Shown: positions 3,355 through 37,537 of the stretch, one piece after another
Numbering within the stretch: the stretch's first letter is position 1
Layout of the letters: the number at the start of each line of letters is the position of its first letter
From: a virus
Lineage: Duplodnaviria > Heunggongvirae > Uroviricota > Caudoviricetes
Reading direction: 5' to 3' (one strand)
DNA: 39,097 nucleotides
Virus record (IMG/VR): IMGVR_UViG_2609460219_000010
Coordinates: 1-39,097 of that record
Notes under the pieces: model-generated
What the model saw: the letters and a program-made list of their open reading frames with translations, nothing else
The model's database searches: none
Told to the model about the DNA's origin: nothing
Position numbers and translations under genes: made by a program

Positions 3355-3707
3355 TACGCCTCCGATGTAACAGTCGTTATTCCATAAAGAGTGTCGATTT
3401 CAGCGGAAAACATGACACGTCGGGTCGTGGTATCCACCGTCGTATTGAAAGAGAGGATTGATTTAACGCCCTGCGTTTCGAGGATGCGCTTACGGATCGC
3501 CAGGTTGTAGGTTTCCGGCTTCTGCTTACCGAGTACGGACTGGATCCACGGAGTCCCTTCGGTGGTGTCGAGAAACCATTGCCCATACCACAATTCGAAT
3601 CGCGTTTTTACCGCCTGCGCCACGGCCTCCGGTGAGTTAATCAGCCAGGTGTCATCACCGCTGCCAAAGGTGTAATCGCCATCGGCGTCTTCACGTCTGT
3701 ATCGCAT
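3354..3707 (-). CDS. small baseplate protein
   Basis: 117 aa ORF coupled between spike-like and J-like genes. Confidence 0.4.
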   Translation of the reverse strand: MRYRREDADGDYTFGSGDDTWLINSPEAVAQAVKTRFELWYGQWFLDTTEGTPWIQSVLGKQKPETYNLAIRKRILETQGVKSILSFNTTVDTTTRRVMFSAEIDTLYGITTVTSEA

Positions 3708-4459
3708 CAGTTTACCCCATCGGTATTGCTTCCACCGCGCTGAACACCGCCATGAGTGTGCGTATCATCGATTGGCTTGCCGTTAGCCTTCACGCTACCC
3801 AAAAACTCAACAGCACCAGTGATTTTTGAAGCTACACCAGAAACAACAGACCCCACCATGCCCCCCATCCAGGTTAACAGGCCATGAATGGTTACTTTCT
3901 CAGAAAAATCAGCCAGAGGGGCAACCACATCAAGGCCCCCCGGAGCGACAATTTTAATTTTCCTGGTATCAGGATTAAGCTCAAAATAGGTGCTGCCGTC
4001 GTCACTACGCAACTGTGTAGCACTGGTATTAATACCGCTAATCTTCCTTGCCTGCGACTGGGGACCGACAATACAAAACGCATCCGATAAATCATGCATT
4101 CTGTCATCAACAGGCTCCTGTATCCCGCCGTTCTGCCACCAGAAATCAATACAACGATCGGCAAAAATCATCAAACATTCATCACCGGCTTTAACTGGGA
4201 ACGTTAGCGTGCATCCTCCGCCGCGCGGGAATACCACTGGCACATCCACCAGCAATGGGTAATTTTGGGTAATGCGGTTGCCGTCATTATCCTTTTCAAC
4301 CGAACGGATAGCAGGCTGCACAACTGCCGTCATCGCATCAGGATCGAATGACTGAATAACGCCAGGCAAGGCGACACGGATCTGGTTCTTTGTTGTTTCC
4401 CGTTCAGATTTAAATGTTTCGGCAAGGTCGCCGCTGCGGGTCTGGTCAGATACTGCCAT
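3707..4459 (-). CDS. baseplate assembly protein V-like (spike)
   Basis: 250 aa; position upstream of small baseplate protein and J; Gly-rich C-terminus. Confidence 0.45.
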   Translation of the reverse strand: MAVSDQTRSGDLAETFKSERETTKNQIRVALPGVIQSFDPDAMTAVVQPAIRSVEKDNDGNRITQNYPLLVDVPVVFPRGGGCTLTFPVKAGDECLMIFADRCIDFWWQNGGIQEPVDDRMHDLSDAFCIVGPQSQARKISGINTSATQLRSDDGSTYFELNPDTRKIKIVAPGGLDVVAPLADFSEKVTIHGLLTWMGGMVGSVVSGVASKITGAVEFLGSVKANGKPIDDTHTHGGVQRGGSNTDGVN

Positions 4460-4478: not shown

Positions 4479-4510
4479 AAAAAACCCGCCAAGTGGCGGG
4501 TTTGAATTTT
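4479..4510 (-). terminator. intrinsic terminator closing the moron cassette
   Basis: Hairpin CCCGCC-AAGT-GGCGGG (4485-4500) followed on the minus strand by a T6 run (plus-strand A6 at 4479-4484); lies between cassette stop (4524) and the next baseplate gene start (4459). Confidence 0.5.
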
Positions 4511-4523
4511 GAGAAATTTCAGC

Positions 4524-4952
4524 TTATGCAGTTAACGAGTCATCACCAATCTTCAGTAATTGATTAACGATTGCATCGACCTCTTCCGCATCCAGAATTA
4601 CACTTCTCGCGGTAATCCGGTTGATTTTCCGCTCAAGCTTGTAATCAGAATTAACACGTTGGGCATGCGTCATTTTCAGTTTAACGCCGATTTTCTTTAC
4701 TGCGTTAACATCAACATCGTTAAGTGCAGCTGCCTCACCACTACAAAAGGCCGTATAGACTCGCATGTGAACTCCACCTTTTAGTTTTTCACCATCTTGT
4801 GTAGCGGTCGGTACCAGATTGTTGGTGATCCGTAAGGCGGAATGGTACATACCATAGTATGCTCGGCTAATAGCATTTCTCGTCCACATCTCACCGTTTA
4901 GAGCCAGGGAATGCTTAGCCAATTCAAGAAAACAGGTATGCTCAACCGACAT
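4524..4952 (-). CDS. hypothetical protein, candidate HEPN-like (R-x6-H motif) moron gene
   Basis: 142 aa; AT-rich relative to flanking tail genes; motif SRAYYGMYH fits Rx4-6H; start overlaps upstream gene stop (coupled). Confidence 0.55.
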   Translation of the reverse strand: MSVEHTCFLELAKHSLALNGEMWTRNAISRAYYGMYHSALRITNNLVPTATQDGEKLKGGVHMRVYTAFCSGEAAALNDVDVNAVKKIGVKLKMTHAQRVNSDYKLERKINRITARSVILDAEEVDAIVNQLLKIGDDSLTA

Positions 4953-5683
4953 TAGAGTTCCCCGGCTTCAAAGCATCCGACGCATTCTGAATCCGCAAGC
5001 CCCGCAATAATAATCTCATCAGCCAAGGCATTATTCATCTGCGAAAGAAGCACTGGATCGTCTGTTTTGACTTCAACGAACAGCGTATCAAGTTCTGACA
5101 TTACATAAAAAGCATGAGCGCCAGCAAGACGAGCGCGGTACTTTTCTGCAACGTTCATCATGAGCCGCCCAATAGTTTTTAGCTCCTGAGCATGATCTTT
5201 TTGGGTATGCAGATAATTGAGCGTGTCATACCATTTGCCCATATCTTCAGGGCGCGGTACTTCCATTGCAGTTAGCATCGGCATCACCTTTTCAAGCAAA
5301 TCGATATCAACCCAGTATGCAGAAATTGTAGCAACCTCAGCCAATATCGTTGGATTAAGTGAATCAGATGCTTTCTGAATCATCACATACTGGCGAGCAT
5401 GCAAACCTAAGTTACGCAGCGCAATCGTATAGTTACAAAAAGAAACTGGATCGTTAGGCGCTATTCTCAACCCCCGCTCACAGAGTGAACATCCTTCATC
5501 TATTTCACCAAGAACAAGCTTAGCTAAGCCTTCAATTGATAGCCCCTGATAACGTTCAGGTAGTTTCTTCGCTTCACGAATGATTCGATGGATTTCAAAC
5601 TCACTCAGAAGGTTTTCACCCTTAGTTAATGAAGGAGTCAGAAGATCTAACAGTTCTCCTGATTTTGGCTGCGCTAAACTCAT
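4952..5683 (-). CDS. hypothetical protein, partner of the 142-aa gene
   Basis: 243 aa ORF, AT-rich, no recognisable phage structural features; 226-bp AT-rich upstream region with possible sigma70-like promoter and AGGA RBS. Confidence 0.55.
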   Translation of the reverse strand: MSLAQPKSGELLDLLTPSLTKGENLLSEFEIHRIIREAKKLPERYQGLSIEGLAKLVLGEIDEGCSLCERGLRIAPNDPVSFCNYTIALRNLGLHARQYVMIQKASDSLNPTILAEVATISAYWVDIDLLEKVMPMLTAMEVPRPEDMGKWYDTLNYLHTQKDHAQELKTIGRLMMNVAEKYRARLAGAHAFYVMSELDTLFVEVKTDDPVLLSQMNNALADEIIIAGLADSECVGCFEAGEL

Positions 5684-5909
5684 GTTTTAGTTATTCCTGG
5701 CTTTAATGAAGTAGCATATCGATGGCAATCCACCATCAAAAAGTCAGTGCAGTGTAATCGCTCGTCTCAAAAAACAACAGTTTTTAGAGCACATTTTGTT
5801 GTTTTTCAGGCGTTACGAATTTCAGGTTACCTTCACCCAGCCACTTTTTTACAAGGGAAAGATCCGATGATTTTCGGCGCATCCATGCTGTTCTGCAGAA
5901 GCTGGACAT

Positions 5910-6173
5910 TCAGGAATCGCGTTTCGGTACCAGGGCGACGAATGTATTCAAAGCCGTAGTTGTTACCGTCTTTGGCAGGCATAAGCCCATGTCTACTTTC
6001 AAACCATTGGTACCCAGTTTGGTGATTTTTTGAGAGGTAACTCTTTCACCGTTGATAGTCGATAACTCGCCCTGGTTTGCAACCATAGTGTAGCCACCGC
6101 ATTTAACCGTGAAGCCATCCGCCCACGCGCTGCACGCAGAAAAGACAGCTAACAGAAAAATAATACCCCTCAT
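5910..6173 (-). CDS. small secreted protein or lipoprotein (signal peptide)
   Basis: N-terminus MRGIIFLLAVFSACSAWA is a signal-peptide-like hydrophobic segment; start 3 nt after the stop of the upstream tail gene; C-terminal extent uncertain. Confidence 0.4.
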   Translation of the reverse strand: MRGIIFLLAVFSACSAWADGFTVKCGGYTMVANQGELSTINGERVTSQKITKLGTNGLKVDMGLCLPKTVTTTALNTFVALVPKRDS

Positions 6174-6176
6174 TGC

Positions 6177-7238
6177 TCATCCCCTTTGCAAAGCCGATCG
6201 CGTATACAGATCCGCCGCGCCACGCGCTTCGCACATCATATCCATGTACCACGCCTGGCCCCTTGTGTCGCCAGTGTACATAATCCCGCGCACAATATAA
6301 ACACCATCCGTTGCGATGCTGGCAGGCTGCGATGTGGTGCCGCTTAGCGTGATATTTCCGTCCGTGTTCTGGTCGGTGATCTGCCCGCCGACCATCGCGA
6401 TATCGTTGTTCGACAGCGCGGTGCGGAATACTGAAGCCTGATCCAGCTGAATGAGCCCGTTAACCCGGATGTTCGGGTTAATCAGCGCGCGGACGTTTAC
6501 GCCGTTGCCGATAGTCTGCTGTGGCATACCGATAAGNCCCGTGGCACTGTTGAGCACAATCGCGTCGTGAACATATTCGTTATTCGCCACCATCTGGCGC
6601 TGACCATCCACGAACTGCCATGTTGCGCCACATTGTCCGGCCACGTTATCCATAAGATGACGTGTCATGCCGAATAGCACCCGGCCCCGGGGGAAAACGG
6701 TAGCAGGCATTTCAGGCGTCAGACCTTCAGTCGCGCCTTTGGCCTCGAAGTCTTTCATCAGCGCGCGATTCACGTCTGCGACCGTATAACCGGCCGCCAG
6801 CGTCTGCGAAGTTATGCTGGTGGCAAAAGCCAGATCCGTATCGGCTGCCTGAATCAGAACGTAAGAATCAATGGGGCTGTCTTTTCCTGTTACCGAGTAA
6901 CGAATTTCGCCGCTGAAAATCATCCCATAGTTGCGGCCATCACTCTGGCCCACATCCGCCGCGTCGACTTCCCGCACGGTCCCGACGTCGCTGGCCGATA
7001 CCTCCGGCGCGATACCGTCGTAACCCGCAATCAGACGCACTTTCGAAAACTCCTGCCCGGTGATTCGGTTCACAGTATCTGCCGAGAGGTTATAAATTTT
7101 GATAGTCCCTATCCGGGACGCACTGCTGATGTTGAACCAGTCGATCGTAAAGGTGACTTTAAAATCACTTAGCTCAATTCCCTGACCGTTCCCGTCCACA
7201 AGCTGCAGCTCGAAATGTCTCATCCAGTTCTGTGACAT
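6177..7238 (-). CDS. baseplate hub/tail protein
   Basis: 353 aa ORF downstream of tape measure in tail module. Confidence 0.45.
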   Translation of the reverse strand: MSQNWMRHFELQLVDGNGQGIELSDFKVTFTIDWFNISSASRIGTIKIYNLSADTVNRITGQEFSKVRLIAGYDGIAPEVSASDVGTVREVDAADVGQSDGRNYGMIFSGEIRYSVTGKDSPIDSYVLIQAADTDLAFATSITSQTLAAGYTVADVNRALMKDFEAKGATEGLTPEMPATVFPRGRVLFGMTRHLMDNVAGQCGATWQFVDGQRQMVANNEYVHDAIVLNSATXLIGMPQQTIGNGVNVRALINPNIRVNGLIQLDQASVFRTALSNNDIAMVGGQITDQNTDGNITLSGTTSQPASIATDGVYIVRGIMYTGDTRGQAWYMDMMCEARGAADLYTRSALQRG

Positions 7239-22541: not shown

Positions 22542-23072
22542 TCACACCATTCCGGGCAAATACATTTGCACTTCATTTGCCGCTCTCTCACGTGCAACAT
22601 GAAGCAATCTTTTTCGCCCACCAACGCCCCACTTAGCCATTTGGCTTGCGCACTGGCTTATCGCTTTGGTTTCAGTATTGATGATGTGATCGATTCTATT
22701 CAGACGGGACATTGCGCCAACACCGAGACGGACAACCGTTTTGAAAACTTCATAAACTTCGATTTCAAATTCCGGCTTAATCCATGCTGCATATCTGATT
22801 GCCAGAAGTTCAACACCCCACACACCTGGTTCTGCACCACCTTTGATTATTTTAAGTGGCTGAATTTGTTCCAAAGTGCTTTTTTGCACTTTGGCCTCCA
22901 GTGCTTTTATAAAGCGTTTTATCTGCGCGCTACGCAAAAACTGGCTTGGGCGCTGTTGCTCTGTAGCCTCTCCATTTGCAACTGCTGCTGCATGGAGATC
23001 GTTTAAGTTGTAGCGTCCATCCTCATCAACACGAACGGACACACCATTGACAATAACTGTTGGGTACTTCAT
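22542..23072 (-). CDS. KilA-N domain protein
   Basis: N-terminal segment VNGVSVRVDEDGRYNLNDLHAAA matches the KilA-N/APSES-type DG-Y-N--DL signature; located after lysis cassette. Confidence 0.55.
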   Translation of the reverse strand: MKYPTVIVNGVSVRVDEDGRYNLNDLHAAAVANGEATEQQRPSQFLRSAQIKRFIKALEAKVQKSTLEQIQPLKIIKGGAEPGVWGVELLAIRYAAWIKPEFEIEVYEVFKTVVRLGVGAMSRLNRIDHIINTETKAISQCASQMAKWGVGGRKRLLHVARERAANEVQMYLPGMV

Positions 23073-28294: not shown

Positions 28295-29310
28295 AGATCC
28301 ACCCCGTAAATCCAGTCAGTGTTTGTCAGGTCGAGTTTTGGTTTTCCGGCTGTCACGCCAGCCTGTTGCTTGTTACGGTTGATTTCGAGCTGGGTCCACT
28401 TGTCGCGGAGTTTGGCCGGACTCAGCACGTTACCGGACCAGAAGTTGTCCTGGCAGGCCCAGCGGAAAAGCACACACATATCGCGGTGGTTACGTCCGTC
28501 ACGTTCACGCATCAGGCGGATATCGTTAGCCCACCCAGCAAAATTCGGTTTTCTGGCTGATGGCGCGATGGTCTTCACCATGTCAAACATCCACTCTGCG
28601 GCGGTCAGGTCTTCTGCTGTCCCCCACTTGCTGCCGCTCTGAATCGCAGCATCCGCTTTCACCACAGGAAGGTCGTTTTCTGGCAGGTCAGAGGATTCGC
28701 CAGAATTCTCGGACGAATAAGGTTTTATATTGTCTTTTGTTAGTTTGTCTTTTGTGTTTACCTGATTCGGGTAAGTGCCTTTACCTGATTTGGGTAAACT
28801 TTTCTTACCTGATTCAGGTAAATTTANCTCTTTCAGGTAAACTTTATTTTTCTTACCTGATTCGGGTAATGTTGACCATTCACTGACCACATTATTAATG
28901 CCTATATTCCGCCCGCTCTGAATAAAAATCCCACGCTTTACCAGAGCACTTTTTGCAGCAGAACACTTGTGCGGCAATATCCCGGTTAATTCGGAAAGTT
29001 GCTCGTTGCTAACCCAATCCAGTTTTTTATTAAAGCCATATGTTTTGCGCATGACAGCCAGAAAGACCAGAAGCTGGTGCTGTGTTAATCCGGCCAGCAT
29101 CACAGCTTCCAGCAACTCATTTGCAATGCGCGTATAACCATCATCGAGATCTGCCACGCGCGGCTCCTTTTGTGCCGCATCCGGCACTGGAAAATTGAAT
29201 ATCTCAGCAGTGTTTGCCATAATTCCTCCCGCAATGAGTGTGTTACGATTTGCACCTGAAAGTCGGTTCTGTTCCCGCAGACCGACTTTCGCCATTTTTG
29301 AACCTGTCAT
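28291..29310 (-). CDS. O: replication initiator O-like protein (hybrid: non-lambda N-terminal domain, lambda-type C-terminal domain)
   Basis: C-terminus ...RWACQDNFWSGNVLSPAKLRDKWTQLEINRNKQQAGVTA.KPKLDLTNTDWIYGVDL recalled as lambda O C-terminus; N-terminal half differs; iterons inside the gene. Confidence 0.8.
   Translation of the reverse strand: MTGSKMAKVGLREQNRLSGANRNTLIAGGIMANTAEIFNFPVPDAAQKEPRVADLDDGYTRIANELLEAVMLAGLTQHQLLVFLAVMRKTYGFNKKLDWVSNEQLSELTGILPHKCSAAKSALVKRGIFIQSGRNIGINNVVSEWSTLPESGKKNKVYLKEXNLPESGKKSLPKSGKGTYPNQVNTKDKLTKDNIKPYSSENSGESSDLPENDLPVVKADAAIQSGSKWGTAEDLTAAEWMFDMVKTIAPSARKPNFAGWANDIRLMRERDGRNHRDMCVLFRWACQDNFWSGNVLSPAKLRDKWTQLEINRNKQQAGVTAGKPKLDLTNTDWIYGVDL
28758..28869. 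repeat. origin iterons (four to five 17-bp repeats TTACCTGATTCGGGTAA) inside O
   Basis: Copies at 28758-28774, 28781-28797, 28805-28821, 28853-28869 plus a degenerate copy around an N near 28827; each internally palindromic; AT-rich tract adjacent. Confidence 0.7.
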
Positions 29311-29852
29311 ATTGCCCCCAGCATGGTGGTGACCATCGCCATCAATGGACCAGCCAGATCTGGGTCCACTCGAAACATCGACACAATGCCTTCACTCATC
29401 TCCTTCAGTTTCTGGTGGCGTGGTGCGTTGAGAATGACCGCCTGCTTTGCCTCACTGAGTTCCTTTTCCATTTCAGCCAGCCGAGCCATGAAGCTATCCT
29501 GCTCAACCAGGTGGCCGCGATATTCCAGCGGTAGTACCGCCAGAATTGCCGGGGTCAGTTCACGCACGTTATTTCGGTATTTTTCAGAATCGAATTTGTT
29601 ATCGAGGAAGCGGAACAGCTTCTGGCGTGCACGACTGACATCATCAGGAAAATCGATGGTGCCGCCGCCCTGTGCTCGATACTCATTCACAATGAGTGCG
29701 GCAACTACATCCTGATTATCTTCAGCAGACCAGGCGCGGACGGCATCACGAATTTTTTCGTGGCCTGGCACCTGTTTTATTTGAGAACGATTTATCACCG
29801 CAGTCGGGCTAAATCCGCTAGTCTGTTGGTATGTAAGTGGTTGCATAATCAT
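29307..29852 (-). CDS. putative CII-like regulator (cII slot)
   Basis: 181 aa ORF between cro and O; assignment positional. Confidence 0.45.
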   Translation of the reverse strand: MIMQPLTYQQTSGFSPTAVINRSQIKQVPGHEKIRDAVRAWSAEDNQDVVAALIVNEYRAQGGGTIDFPDDVSRARQKLFRFLDNKFDSEKYRNNVRELTPAILAVLPLEYRGHLVEQDSFMARLAEMEKELSEAKQAVILNAPRHQKLKEMSEGIVSMFRVDPDLAGPLMAMVTTMLGAI

Positions 29853-30974: not shown

Positions 30975-31839
30975 ATGGATTGTGACGCTTTACAGGATAT
31001 AAAAATCTCTCTTAGGTATGACGGAAAAGATGCTTTAAATCATGAAATAGATTTGAACTGCCTAGGAGAATCCCTAAAGGGTTTTTCTAAAGTTCTCTCA
31101 ACAGCAGCTTCTTTCTCTGTTACACAAAAATATAGTAAATACATTAATTATCAGGAAGTTAAGGTTTACGCACGCGAAGCAAAAGCTAACTGCTTTACTC
31201 TTGAAGCAGTTCTTAACTTCGCCACTCAGAACCAGTTGTTCTCGGGGATCGCCGCAACTATACTTGGCGCAATACTACAATATATTTTTGCGAGAAATTC
31301 TAACAAGAAAGATGAAATGAAAGCTTTGCAGCAGTCACTTGAAAAGGCCATAGAGGCACTAGGAAACAAGGATGCTGGAACCATTGATAAGTTGATCTCT
31401 TTGATTGACCGAATGGCTGTAGAGCTTCGCCCCTCTGTAAGGCAGGCAGTATCACCTATTGGTAATACTTGCGATCAGATAAGTGTTGCAACAAATGTTG
31501 ACGGCTGCCTTCTAAAAGTTAACGAGAGAGATAAAGCTGAAATTGATAGGCTTGATGATGATGAAGTTCTCGGTCTTCGTGAGTATCGTGCTTTTCTTAC
31601 AGAATTTGATGCACAAAATATGACAGCTAAAATAATTTTAGATGGTGATGACTCNAAAAAAGAGAATCACTGCTGAAATTAGCGATCCAGCTGCAGGAAA
31701 GAAGAATAACCCGTATATTAGAGCTCTTAGTGCATATATATCAACCAAAGGTGATCCATCTGCAGTATTCACTATAACCGCAAAGGCTACTGTTAAAAAA
31801 GGCCAGATAAACAGGTTATTTATTGTAGATGCGAAATGA
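30975..31839 (+). CDS. hypothetical protein in rex position (candidate superinfection-exclusion/defence), frame-disrupted at an A-run
   Basis: AT-rich ORF directly after cI on same strand; predicted single TM segment ([19 protein letters not shown]); frames 30975..31676 and 31642..31839 join if the N at 31655 before AAAAAA is dropped; own terminator follows. Confidence 0.5.
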
Positions 31840-37108: not shown

Positions 37109-37537
37109 ATGAAATTAGACCAGCAATATCTAAAAGATCTACTTATCGCATTCGAAAAAACTCGTGGCCCTGACACGATGCTTAGTGAACTAGAGGATAA
37201 TGGCTTTAATAGATATGACCAAGATTTTATTTTCCATATGCGATTATTATGTGACTACGAATTAATAGTCAGGGTTGATGGAAAACCTGGATTCGGTCAT
37301 ATAATGTCCAAAGCGTTAGGGGAAGGTGTTGGATATAGTTGGATCGAAGTACCACTGAGGTTGACAGCAAGAGGGCATGATTTTATTGCTGACTTACGTC
37401 AAAAGGATGTCTGGCAAGCTATAAAAACAAACTTTAAGGATGAGGGAATTAGTACACTTATGAGTGTTTCAAAATCACTAGCAAAAGGCTTTGCAAGGAA
37501 AAAGATAAAAGATATTACAGGAATAGATATTGAATAA
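37109..37537 (+). CDS. hypothetical protein, AT-rich moron upstream of xis
   Basis: 142 aa, strongly AT-rich, GGAGG RBS, own hairpin terminator. Confidence 0.55.
   Translation: MKLDQQYLKDLLIAFEKTRGPDTMLSELEDNGFNRYDQDFIFHMRLLCDYELIVRVDGKPGFGHIMSKALGEGVGYSWIEVPLRLTARGHDFIADLRQKDVWQAIKTNFKDEGISTLMSVSKSLAKGFARKKIKDITGIDIE

Follow-up and report, generated by a model that had tools for sequence, protein, structure and literature searches.

Introduction

HEPN nucleases are common effectors of bacterial immunity, and those carried by prophages include precedents for abortive infection, e.g., HepS (PMC13043305) and Tha (PMC11087260). In the AF0298 family of HEPN proteins (HEPN-T; PF05168; UPF0332/COG2250; solved structures 2hsb and 9xbd), Asp stands where the Rx4-6H motif would have its His, the Arg is retained, and a further conserved His on the N-terminal side of the motif may provide an alternative active site (Anantharaman et al., PMC3710099). 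Members of COG2250 are reported to be paired with a minimal nucleotidyltransferase (MNT), mostly in thermophiles (PMC2701414). Here, we describe a two-gene cassette, A-B, situated among the baseplate genes of a lambdoid-regulated, SEN34-like Escherichia coli prophage, whose 39-kb sequence (IMG/VR record IMGVR_UViG_2609460219_000010, positions 1 to 39,097) is referred to below as the window. Gene B encodes an HEPN-T protein of the AF0298 type and gene A a TPR-like partner, and on balance we consider it probable that the two form an HEPN module in which A is the neutralizer or sensor of B, a latent RNase or RNA-binding toxin, serving abortive infection or addiction. The cassette consists of the following elements (aa, amino acids):

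4952..5683, minus strand: gene A, 243 aa, TPR-like repeat protein, upstream partner of the HEPN gene
4524..4952, minus strand: gene B, 142 aa, HEPN-fold protein of the AF0298/UPF0332 (PF05168, HEPN-T) type
4949..4953, minus strand: overlap of the A stop and B start (TAATG), seen in the sequence; the two genes abut or overlap in all pair-bearing loci

A previous examination of this DNA from its letters alone (the sequence-only reading) had described two open reading frames of these lengths with overlapping stop and start, and both are present. The overlap is consistent with translational coupling, and purifying selection on both genes is strong, with dN/dS of 0.08-0.14 for A and 0.05-0.07 for B.

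Compared with the COG2250 pairs, the partner here is TPR-like, the hosts are enterobacterial and Vibrio temperate phages, and B itself reaches no Pfam or NCBIfam threshold. In its operon layout the pair is similar to HepT/MntA, the type VII HEPN-MNT toxin-antitoxin (TA) system. However, HepT/MntA includes an MNT, whereas A has neither the signature nor the fold of a nucleotidyltransferase, and HepT carries a canonical RX4HXY with a modifiable Tyr, whereas B has R-x3-D-Y, in which the Tyr is invariant and there is no His. Since both the MNT and RX4HXY are lacking, neutralization of B by AMPylation would not be expected. HepS of Gifsy-1, Tha-1/2 of Staphylococcus aureus phages, and Butters gp57r are like A-B in being HEPN cargo of temperate phages in accessory-gene positions, but they are single proteins with a canonical Rx4-6H and an essential His, which hold themselves inactive and are triggered by tail proteins, while B is H-less and has a dedicated TPR-like partner. 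The theme of an HEPN effector with a helical-repeat partner is shared with LA2681, AbiU2, and AbiV, which we compared by description only: LA2681 HEPN domains are fused to, or in an operon with, TPR proteins, AbiU2 occurs with a Sel1-repeat gene, and AbiV has an alternative His (PMC3710099), a feature that it shares with the AF0298 family. These families differ from B either in being listed with a conserved Rx4-6H (LA2681, AbiU2) or in belonging to other HEPN clades.

Results

Gene B is an HEPN-T protein

Direct sequence searches with B against Pfam, NCBIfam, and the PDB gave no match, and a narrow B-family profile (A1) reached 2hsb at an E-value of only 0.16. An exhaustive HMMER search returned 1206 related clusters, and many distant matches carry PF05168 or the name UPF0332. 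From these relatives, a sample of 62 sequences with 23-47% identity was used to assess conservation, together with a second set of 12 partner-linked homologues. Eighteen of the 62 match the Pfam HEPN family PF05168 (best E-value 1.4e-7), and the profile of these relatives matches the solved HEPN structures 9xbd (6.9e-10) and 2hsb (6.5e-6). The structure model of B is an up-down helical bundle that can be superposed on solved HEPN domains. Since direct searches were empty, the HEPN assignment is based on this model and on the wider profile. The sequence-only reading had seen an HEPN-like motif in the 142-aa protein, and the HEPN identity stands, albeit by virtue of residues other than those it had singled out. 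PHROG places A and B in families 22649 and 5176, both annotated "unknown function".

RefSeq accessions for the pair, taken from a locus of identical length and 99.9% DNA identity, gave no literature match and were not found among the DefensePredictor supplement entries listed. DefensePredictor DS-28, a two-gene HEPN system, was not equated with A-B, its HEPN gene lying at the 5' end and differing in size (163 aa).

Conserved residues of B and a possible alternative active site

The segment SRAYYGMYH (residues 29-37 of B) had been proposed by the sequence-only reading as the HEPN catalytic signature. R30 is invariant and H37 is present in at least 90% of the 62 relatives, showing that both residues are conserved among homologues, so that the lack of conservation by which the sequence-only reading would have been refuted does not apply. 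However, the two lie on helix 2 of the model (residues 21-43) and not at the position of the canonical motif, and the residues aligned with them in solved relatives are Thr for R30 (AF0298) and Tyr for H37 (9xbd); the segment was therefore rejected as a catalytic Rx6H. At the canonical position, in the second helical hairpin, B has R99-V-N-S-D103-Y104, which keeps the Arg, has no His, and aligns with LRNRSDY of 9xbd and LREESDY of AF0298.

The conserved residues of B comprise E21-x3-R25, R30, Y32, Y33, H37, H62, R99, D103, and Y104. Among the 62 sequences, E21, R25, R99, and Y104 are invariant and H62 and D103 reach at least 90%, while in the 12 partner-linked homologues all six are invariant. 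B therefore has, in E21/R25, the second motif Ex3[KR] that is carried by many HEPN families (PMC3710099), as well as a conserved His on the N-terminal side of the main motif. Both 9xbd and AF0298 have a His at the position of H62 and, judging from helix topology, H62 rather than H37 would be the "alternative His" of PMC3710099. From the order of the helices we infer that E21, R25, H62, R99, D103, and Y104 come together at one end of the bundle, which would leave H37 ~24 Å further along helix 2. The RNase activity of B is thus putative, and less certain than a canonical motif would imply.

The closest solved relatives of the B family, 9xbd and 9xbc, are 125-131-aa proteins named "HEPN domain-containing protein". 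In the aligned region they read RNRSDY and RNRSDF, respectively, i.e., a Tyr-to-Phe change at the equivalent of B Y104, which suggests that this residue is being probed experimentally. A literature search for PDB 9XBD gave no relevant paper.

Gene A and its pairing with B

A consists of a TPR-like helical repeat (residues ~7-181) followed by a C-terminal beta-beta-alpha-beta domain (186-240). The possibility that A is a minimal nucleotidyltransferase was rejected for want of the motif and because of the wrong fold: there was no nucleotidyltransferase match in Pfam, NCBIfam, or PADLOC, and no G[SG]...DxD signature was seen by eye in the alignment.

All fetched loci were searched with profiles of A and B. 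In 46 of the 49 loci with a B-profile match, an A-profile match lies directly upstream of B, abutting or overlapping it, and one further locus (L035) has no upstream DNA by which to judge. The remaining two (L058 and L059) hold the most distant viral copies of B, at 34% and 32% identity, and their upstream partners of 270 and 260 aa align with the A profile over their full length, though weakly (hhalign E-values 1.7e-3 and 3.4e-4); one of these partners matches TPR Pfam models. In a Vibrio P2-like phage, a 262-aa partner matches A with an hhalign probability of 92%. These results support A-B as an obligate, apparently translationally coupled pair from 100% down to ~30% identity. A scan of genome contigs with the A profile, made with a narrow peptide pattern, returned only three loci.

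One distant relative of B has a 195-aa neighbor with a weak match to the C-terminal domain of A only (E-value 0.016). Since this neighbor resembles no other part of A, it hints, if weakly, that the C-terminal domain may be the constant, HEPN-facing part of the partner and the repeats its variable part.

A 243-aa predicted protein on a 2.1-kb metagenomic contig (P0022) is 89% identical to B over 65% of B and also carries FAD/NAD-binding oxidoreductase Pfam domains. This is probably a chimeric assembly or a miscalled open reading frame rather than a real fusion.

The cassette occupies an exchangeable cargo slot

This part of the window has genes on the minus strand only, and the cassette and its surroundings are laid out as follows:

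6177-7238, minus strand: baseplate hub, upstream of the cassette (phrog_196 "baseplate hub", 1e-85; weak PF22759)
5833..6173, minus strand: right boundary gene of the STY1065/STY2022 family (phrog_3443); the open reading frame in the window is 5910-6173, 87 aa
5684..5832, minus strand: cassette-specific spacer, 149 bp, 37.6% GC, with breakpoints at 5833-5846
4482..4503, minus strand: intrinsic terminator marking the left edge of the slot, consisting of the hairpin AAACCCGCC-ACTT-GGCGGGTTT and a T-run after it, immediately upstream of the spike ribosome-binding site
3707-4459, minus strand: gpV-type spike, downstream of the cassette (PF18352, 6e-44)

As had been noted from the letters, the two genes interrupt a run of baseplate genes, with the hub on one side and the spike on the other. 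Beyond the spike follow a "contractile injection system sheath initiator" (so annotated in an E. coli locus that is nearly identical), Baseplate_J, and a wedge protein. Salmonella phage SEN34 (genus Brunovirus) has a similar tail module, and the window also encodes a CI-type repressor, O/P replication proteins, NinG, the antiterminator Q (PF06530, 1.5e-24), lysis genes, terminase, and integrase.

E. coli chromosomes hold near-identical copies of the locus. The hub-spike region is matched by 353 complete E. coli genomes, and 32 of these have the cassette at high identity, i.e., a frequency of ~9% among otherwise near-identical prophage backbones. The breakpoints of the slot are at ~4504 on the left and 5833-5846 on the right. 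Elsewhere, the slot holds a divergent allele of the A-B pair (E. coli 07_3722), a YafO-family toxin (Pfam YafO, 3.9e-17) with an unannotated 189-aa upstream gene (E. coli EC17CM13; L010 801-1791), or, in other strains (L008, L009, and L013), a DUF2335 membrane protein, a DUF4282 protein, and a pair of 184 and 56 aa; further copies contain other hypothetical genes or nothing annotated, and in SEN34 there are two unrelated small genes. The slot (4504-5832) has 43.1% GC, compared with 50.2% and 52.4% in the flanking structural genes. The AT-richness reported by the sequence-only reading is therefore real but moderate, as 9.7% of equal-sized windows across the 39 kb have a GC content as low or lower.

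These results support A-B as exchangeable cargo and not baseplate machinery. Since the slot holds exchangeable cargo, a structural role is effectively excluded and the earlier view of the cassette as a moron is upheld in its broad sense, by presence or absence in a syntenic backbone and by deviant GC, leaving aside the parts of an autonomous unit. The locus is like the morons and hotspots of temperate phages in that it is polymorphic for presence or absence, is lower in GC, has a terminator at its downstream edge, and is compatible with Q antitermination. However, morons bring their own terminator, whereas here the terminator is a fixed element of the backbone common to all cargos. We know of no described hotspot in the hub-spike slot of SEN34-like myoviruses, and this slot may be an undescribed cargo or defense hotspot of SEN34-like prophages.

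Most copies of the pair are in the same slot, also in backbones with a hub protein of only 47-62% identity. In a lambda-like siphovirus prophage of Lelliottia, the pair instead follows the tape-measure gene directly, within the tail module, and in a different myovirus-like prophage (Serratia, Enterobacter) it lies in the tail module among the morons pRha and DUF3761. Klebsiella phage Chronis has it between replication and lysis genes, and a lambdoid prophage (L064) has it with the replication P gene on one side and NinE/RusA/Q on the other. The latter two positions, between replication and late or lysis genes, are broadly like that of Gifsy-1 hepS, which is located between replication and antirepressor genes (PMC13043305). 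In the Vibrio P2-like phage, the pair lies between portal/ogr-like genes and replication gene A, which is the position of the P2 gpA-gpQ interval described as an anti-phage hotspot (Rousset et al., PMC9122126).

A fixed terminator, a putative promoter, and a frameshifted boundary gene

The terminator at the left edge of the slot (read 4503..4482) has a 9-bp stem with six GC pairs and a T6 run, and its folding energy (dG -15.7 kcal/mol) gives z -4.05 relative to shuffled sequences. In loci with other cargo, homology of the left flank passes through the hairpin and ends at window 4501-4518. The stem, T-run, spike ribosome-binding site, and ATG are kept in 8/8 aligned cargo variants, including SEN34, while the adjacent upstream sequence is unrelated; across these variants (loci L002 and L008-L013), the stem is fixed and the loop is variable. 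Since it is common to every cargo variant, the terminator belongs to the backbone and not to the cassette. The sequence-only reading had credited the cassette with its own hairpin and U6 terminator: the hairpin and T6 exist, but not as property of the cassette. Considering its conservation under every cargo, the terminator may be read as a fixed insulator bordering the cargo slot inside the Q-dependent late operon.

Upstream of A, a "possible promoter" had been suggested, but a sigma-70 consensus scan of the minus strand at the spacer found none. Candidates picked by eye have a poor, 15-nt spacing or weak -10 boxes, and therefore no promoter is claimed from them. A TACACT box at 5751-5756, 68 nt before the ATG of A, recurs as TA(C/A)ACT in the Lelliottia, Enterobacter, and Serratia phage cassettes at a similar distance (~65 nt in L005). 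The -35 element of this box is good in the Enterobacter and Serratia copies (TTGAAA, 17-nt spacer) and poor in the window. A putative cassette promoter is therefore plausible. The spacer also contains an AT-rich hairpin (~5769-5809, minus strand) whose 10-13 bp are mostly A-U and which precedes a T-run (dG -10.1, z -2.7). It lies shortly downstream of the stop expected for the intact upstream gene, and it could be a weak terminator of that gene; it also overlaps the place where a -35 for the TACACT box would fall.

The sequence-only reading had given the AT-rich region upstream of A a length of 226 bp. This length is an artifact, because a 1-bp deletion in the window (GGG at 5986-5988, compared with GGGG in E. 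coli 09A19CPO009) truncates the upstream boundary gene to 87 aa from the 113 aa found in 09A19CPO009, the one relative aligned base by base. The intact frame ends at 5833, leaving the spacer of 149 bp. E. coli matches at 100% coverage all span 1602 bases against the 1601-base query, which, as far as spans alone can tell, fits the same indel. The frameshifted copy may be a pseudogene or reflect a homopolymer sequencing error. The N-terminus of the boundary protein, MRGIIFLLAVFSACSAWA, looks like a signal peptide or lipoprotein signal.

Discussion

The function that we favor for A-B would operate as follows. B would be built around an active site formed by E21/R25, H62, R99, and D103/Y104 at one bundle end, and A, made in fixed proportion to B through translational coupling, would keep B inactive as an antitoxin or sensor. 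On a signal, e.g., a protein of an infecting phage, A would release B, and the outcome would be abortive infection or prophage addiction. In the lysogen, the conserved terminator would keep any transcript begun in the cassette spacer from reaching the spike gene, whereas in lytic growth a Q-modified polymerase would read through it. In lambda, Q-type late transcription passes terminators, and the read-through envisaged here is by analogy with this.

Several observations weigh against such a function. B has no canonical Rx4-6H, and we found no experiment showing RNase activity for an AF0298-type HEPN. In addition to the empty Pfam and NCBIfam searches with B, PADLOC-DB v2.0.0 gave only sub-threshold matches (HEPN_IX, E-value 0.0094, 14 bits, for B; PDC-M71B, E-value 0.037, as the best for A). 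Distant relatives of B are not all paired: one lacks a full partner, another has a 252-aa neighbor with no similarity to A, and a distant PF05168 relative (P0250, 133 aa; L068 3001-3402) lies between the genes for ribosomal proteins S10 and L3. Since some distant relatives are unpaired, the pairing rule holds for the clade and not for all 1206 related clusters. No promoter passed the sigma-70 scan, so that expression in the lysogen is putative. Finally, the cassette is co-oriented with the late operon and so would also be transcribed late in lytic growth, an arrangement that suits a role benefiting the phage equally well. (The P0250 contig is 6.1 Mb long, and a location inside the S10 operon is unusual.)

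Of the other explanations, it is unlikely that A-B is a plain TA addiction module that stabilizes the prophage or cassette with no anti-phage role, B being the toxin and A a labile proteinaceous antitoxin. The layout is typical of TA loci (upstream partner, overlapping stop and start, small size), a YafO-family toxin pair occupies the same slot in other strains, and HEPN-T proteins have been classed with MNT-HEPN TA modules (PMC2701414). However, A, at 243 aa, is large and is built on a TPR interaction scaffold, a feature seen more typically in sensors than in simple antitoxins, and the pair is found where anti-phage or accessory genes are reported. The absence of the canonical His could also mean that B is a catalytically inactive HEPN that binds nucleotide or RNA and forms with A a regulatory or adaptor complex, e.g., one modulating host or phage expression. 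Indeed, Rx4-6H is lost in NTase (nucleotidyltransferase)-fused HEPN domains, which may serve to bind substrates, and HEPN domains without conserved polar residues are probably non-catalytic binders (PMC3710099). In B, however, E21, R25, H62, R99, D103, and Y104 are invariant or nearly so across relatives of 23-47% identity, a pattern that PMC3710099 takes to indicate an alternative active site, and we hold an inactive B to be improbable.

The position of the cassette, embedded in the Q-dependent late operon and in the same orientation, would suit a counter-defense or lytic accessory function, whereby late expression helps the phage, e.g., by neutralizing host immunity or remodeling host RNA. 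The lack of a confirmed independent promoter and the presence of the pair in phage Chronis, isolated from sewage, are in keeping with this. Considering that only ~9% of near-identical backbones carry the pair, that a YafO toxin or small uncharacterized genes replace it in others, and that the upstream spacer is cassette-specific with a TA(C/A)ACT box common to unrelated backbones, we regard such a function as very unlikely. That A and B are phage-specific structural or assembly proteins of the tail or baseplate is effectively refuted. Only their position inside the baseplate gene cluster speaks for it, whereas Pfam, PHROGs, and NCBIfam gave no structural-family match for either protein; the pair is missing from most phages with the same baseplate genes and occurs in non-structural regions of other phages, and the folds are HEPN and TPR.

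We return to A-B as a proposed latent HEPN effector held by its partner, a credible candidate among many uncharacterized candidate defense modules. A more specific proposal, which we offer tentatively as a possibility, is that A-B is a new, widespread two-component abortive-infection family of temperate phages, in which the sensor is TPR-like, carries a small HEPN-binding domain at its C-terminus, and gates a His-less, still RNase-active AF0298-type HEPN (H62/R99/D103/Y104). If so, this would provide the first function and activation mechanism for the large UPF0332/COG2250 HEPN branch outside MNT pairing, a branch that lacks the catalytic His and for which no demonstrated activity was found, and the hub-spike junction of SEN34-like myoviruses would be a defense hotspot bounded by a fixed insulating terminator. 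As an E. coli case the module is tractable: its two genes make up a small unit that is strictly conserved, the kind of partner is new, and the prophage cargo sites in which it lies hold TA or defense genes elsewhere. Toxicity, RNase activity, or phage protection, if shown, would assign a function to two PHROG families of "unknown function", test the alternative-active-site hypothesis for H-less HEPN domains, and add a TPR plus HEPN-T sensor-effector design to the defense catalogue. The terminator before the spike suggests, for the lysogen, a means of insulating a cargo slot from late structural genes.

Other accessory-looking genes of the window

Four further genes of the prophage look accessory:

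22542-23072, minus strand: KilA-N protein, after the lysis genes
29307-29852, minus strand: YdaT_toxin-domain protein, adjoining replication gene O
30975-31676, plus strand: DUF7946 protein, adjoining the CI-type repressor
37109-37537, plus strand: DUF2513 protein, near the integrase

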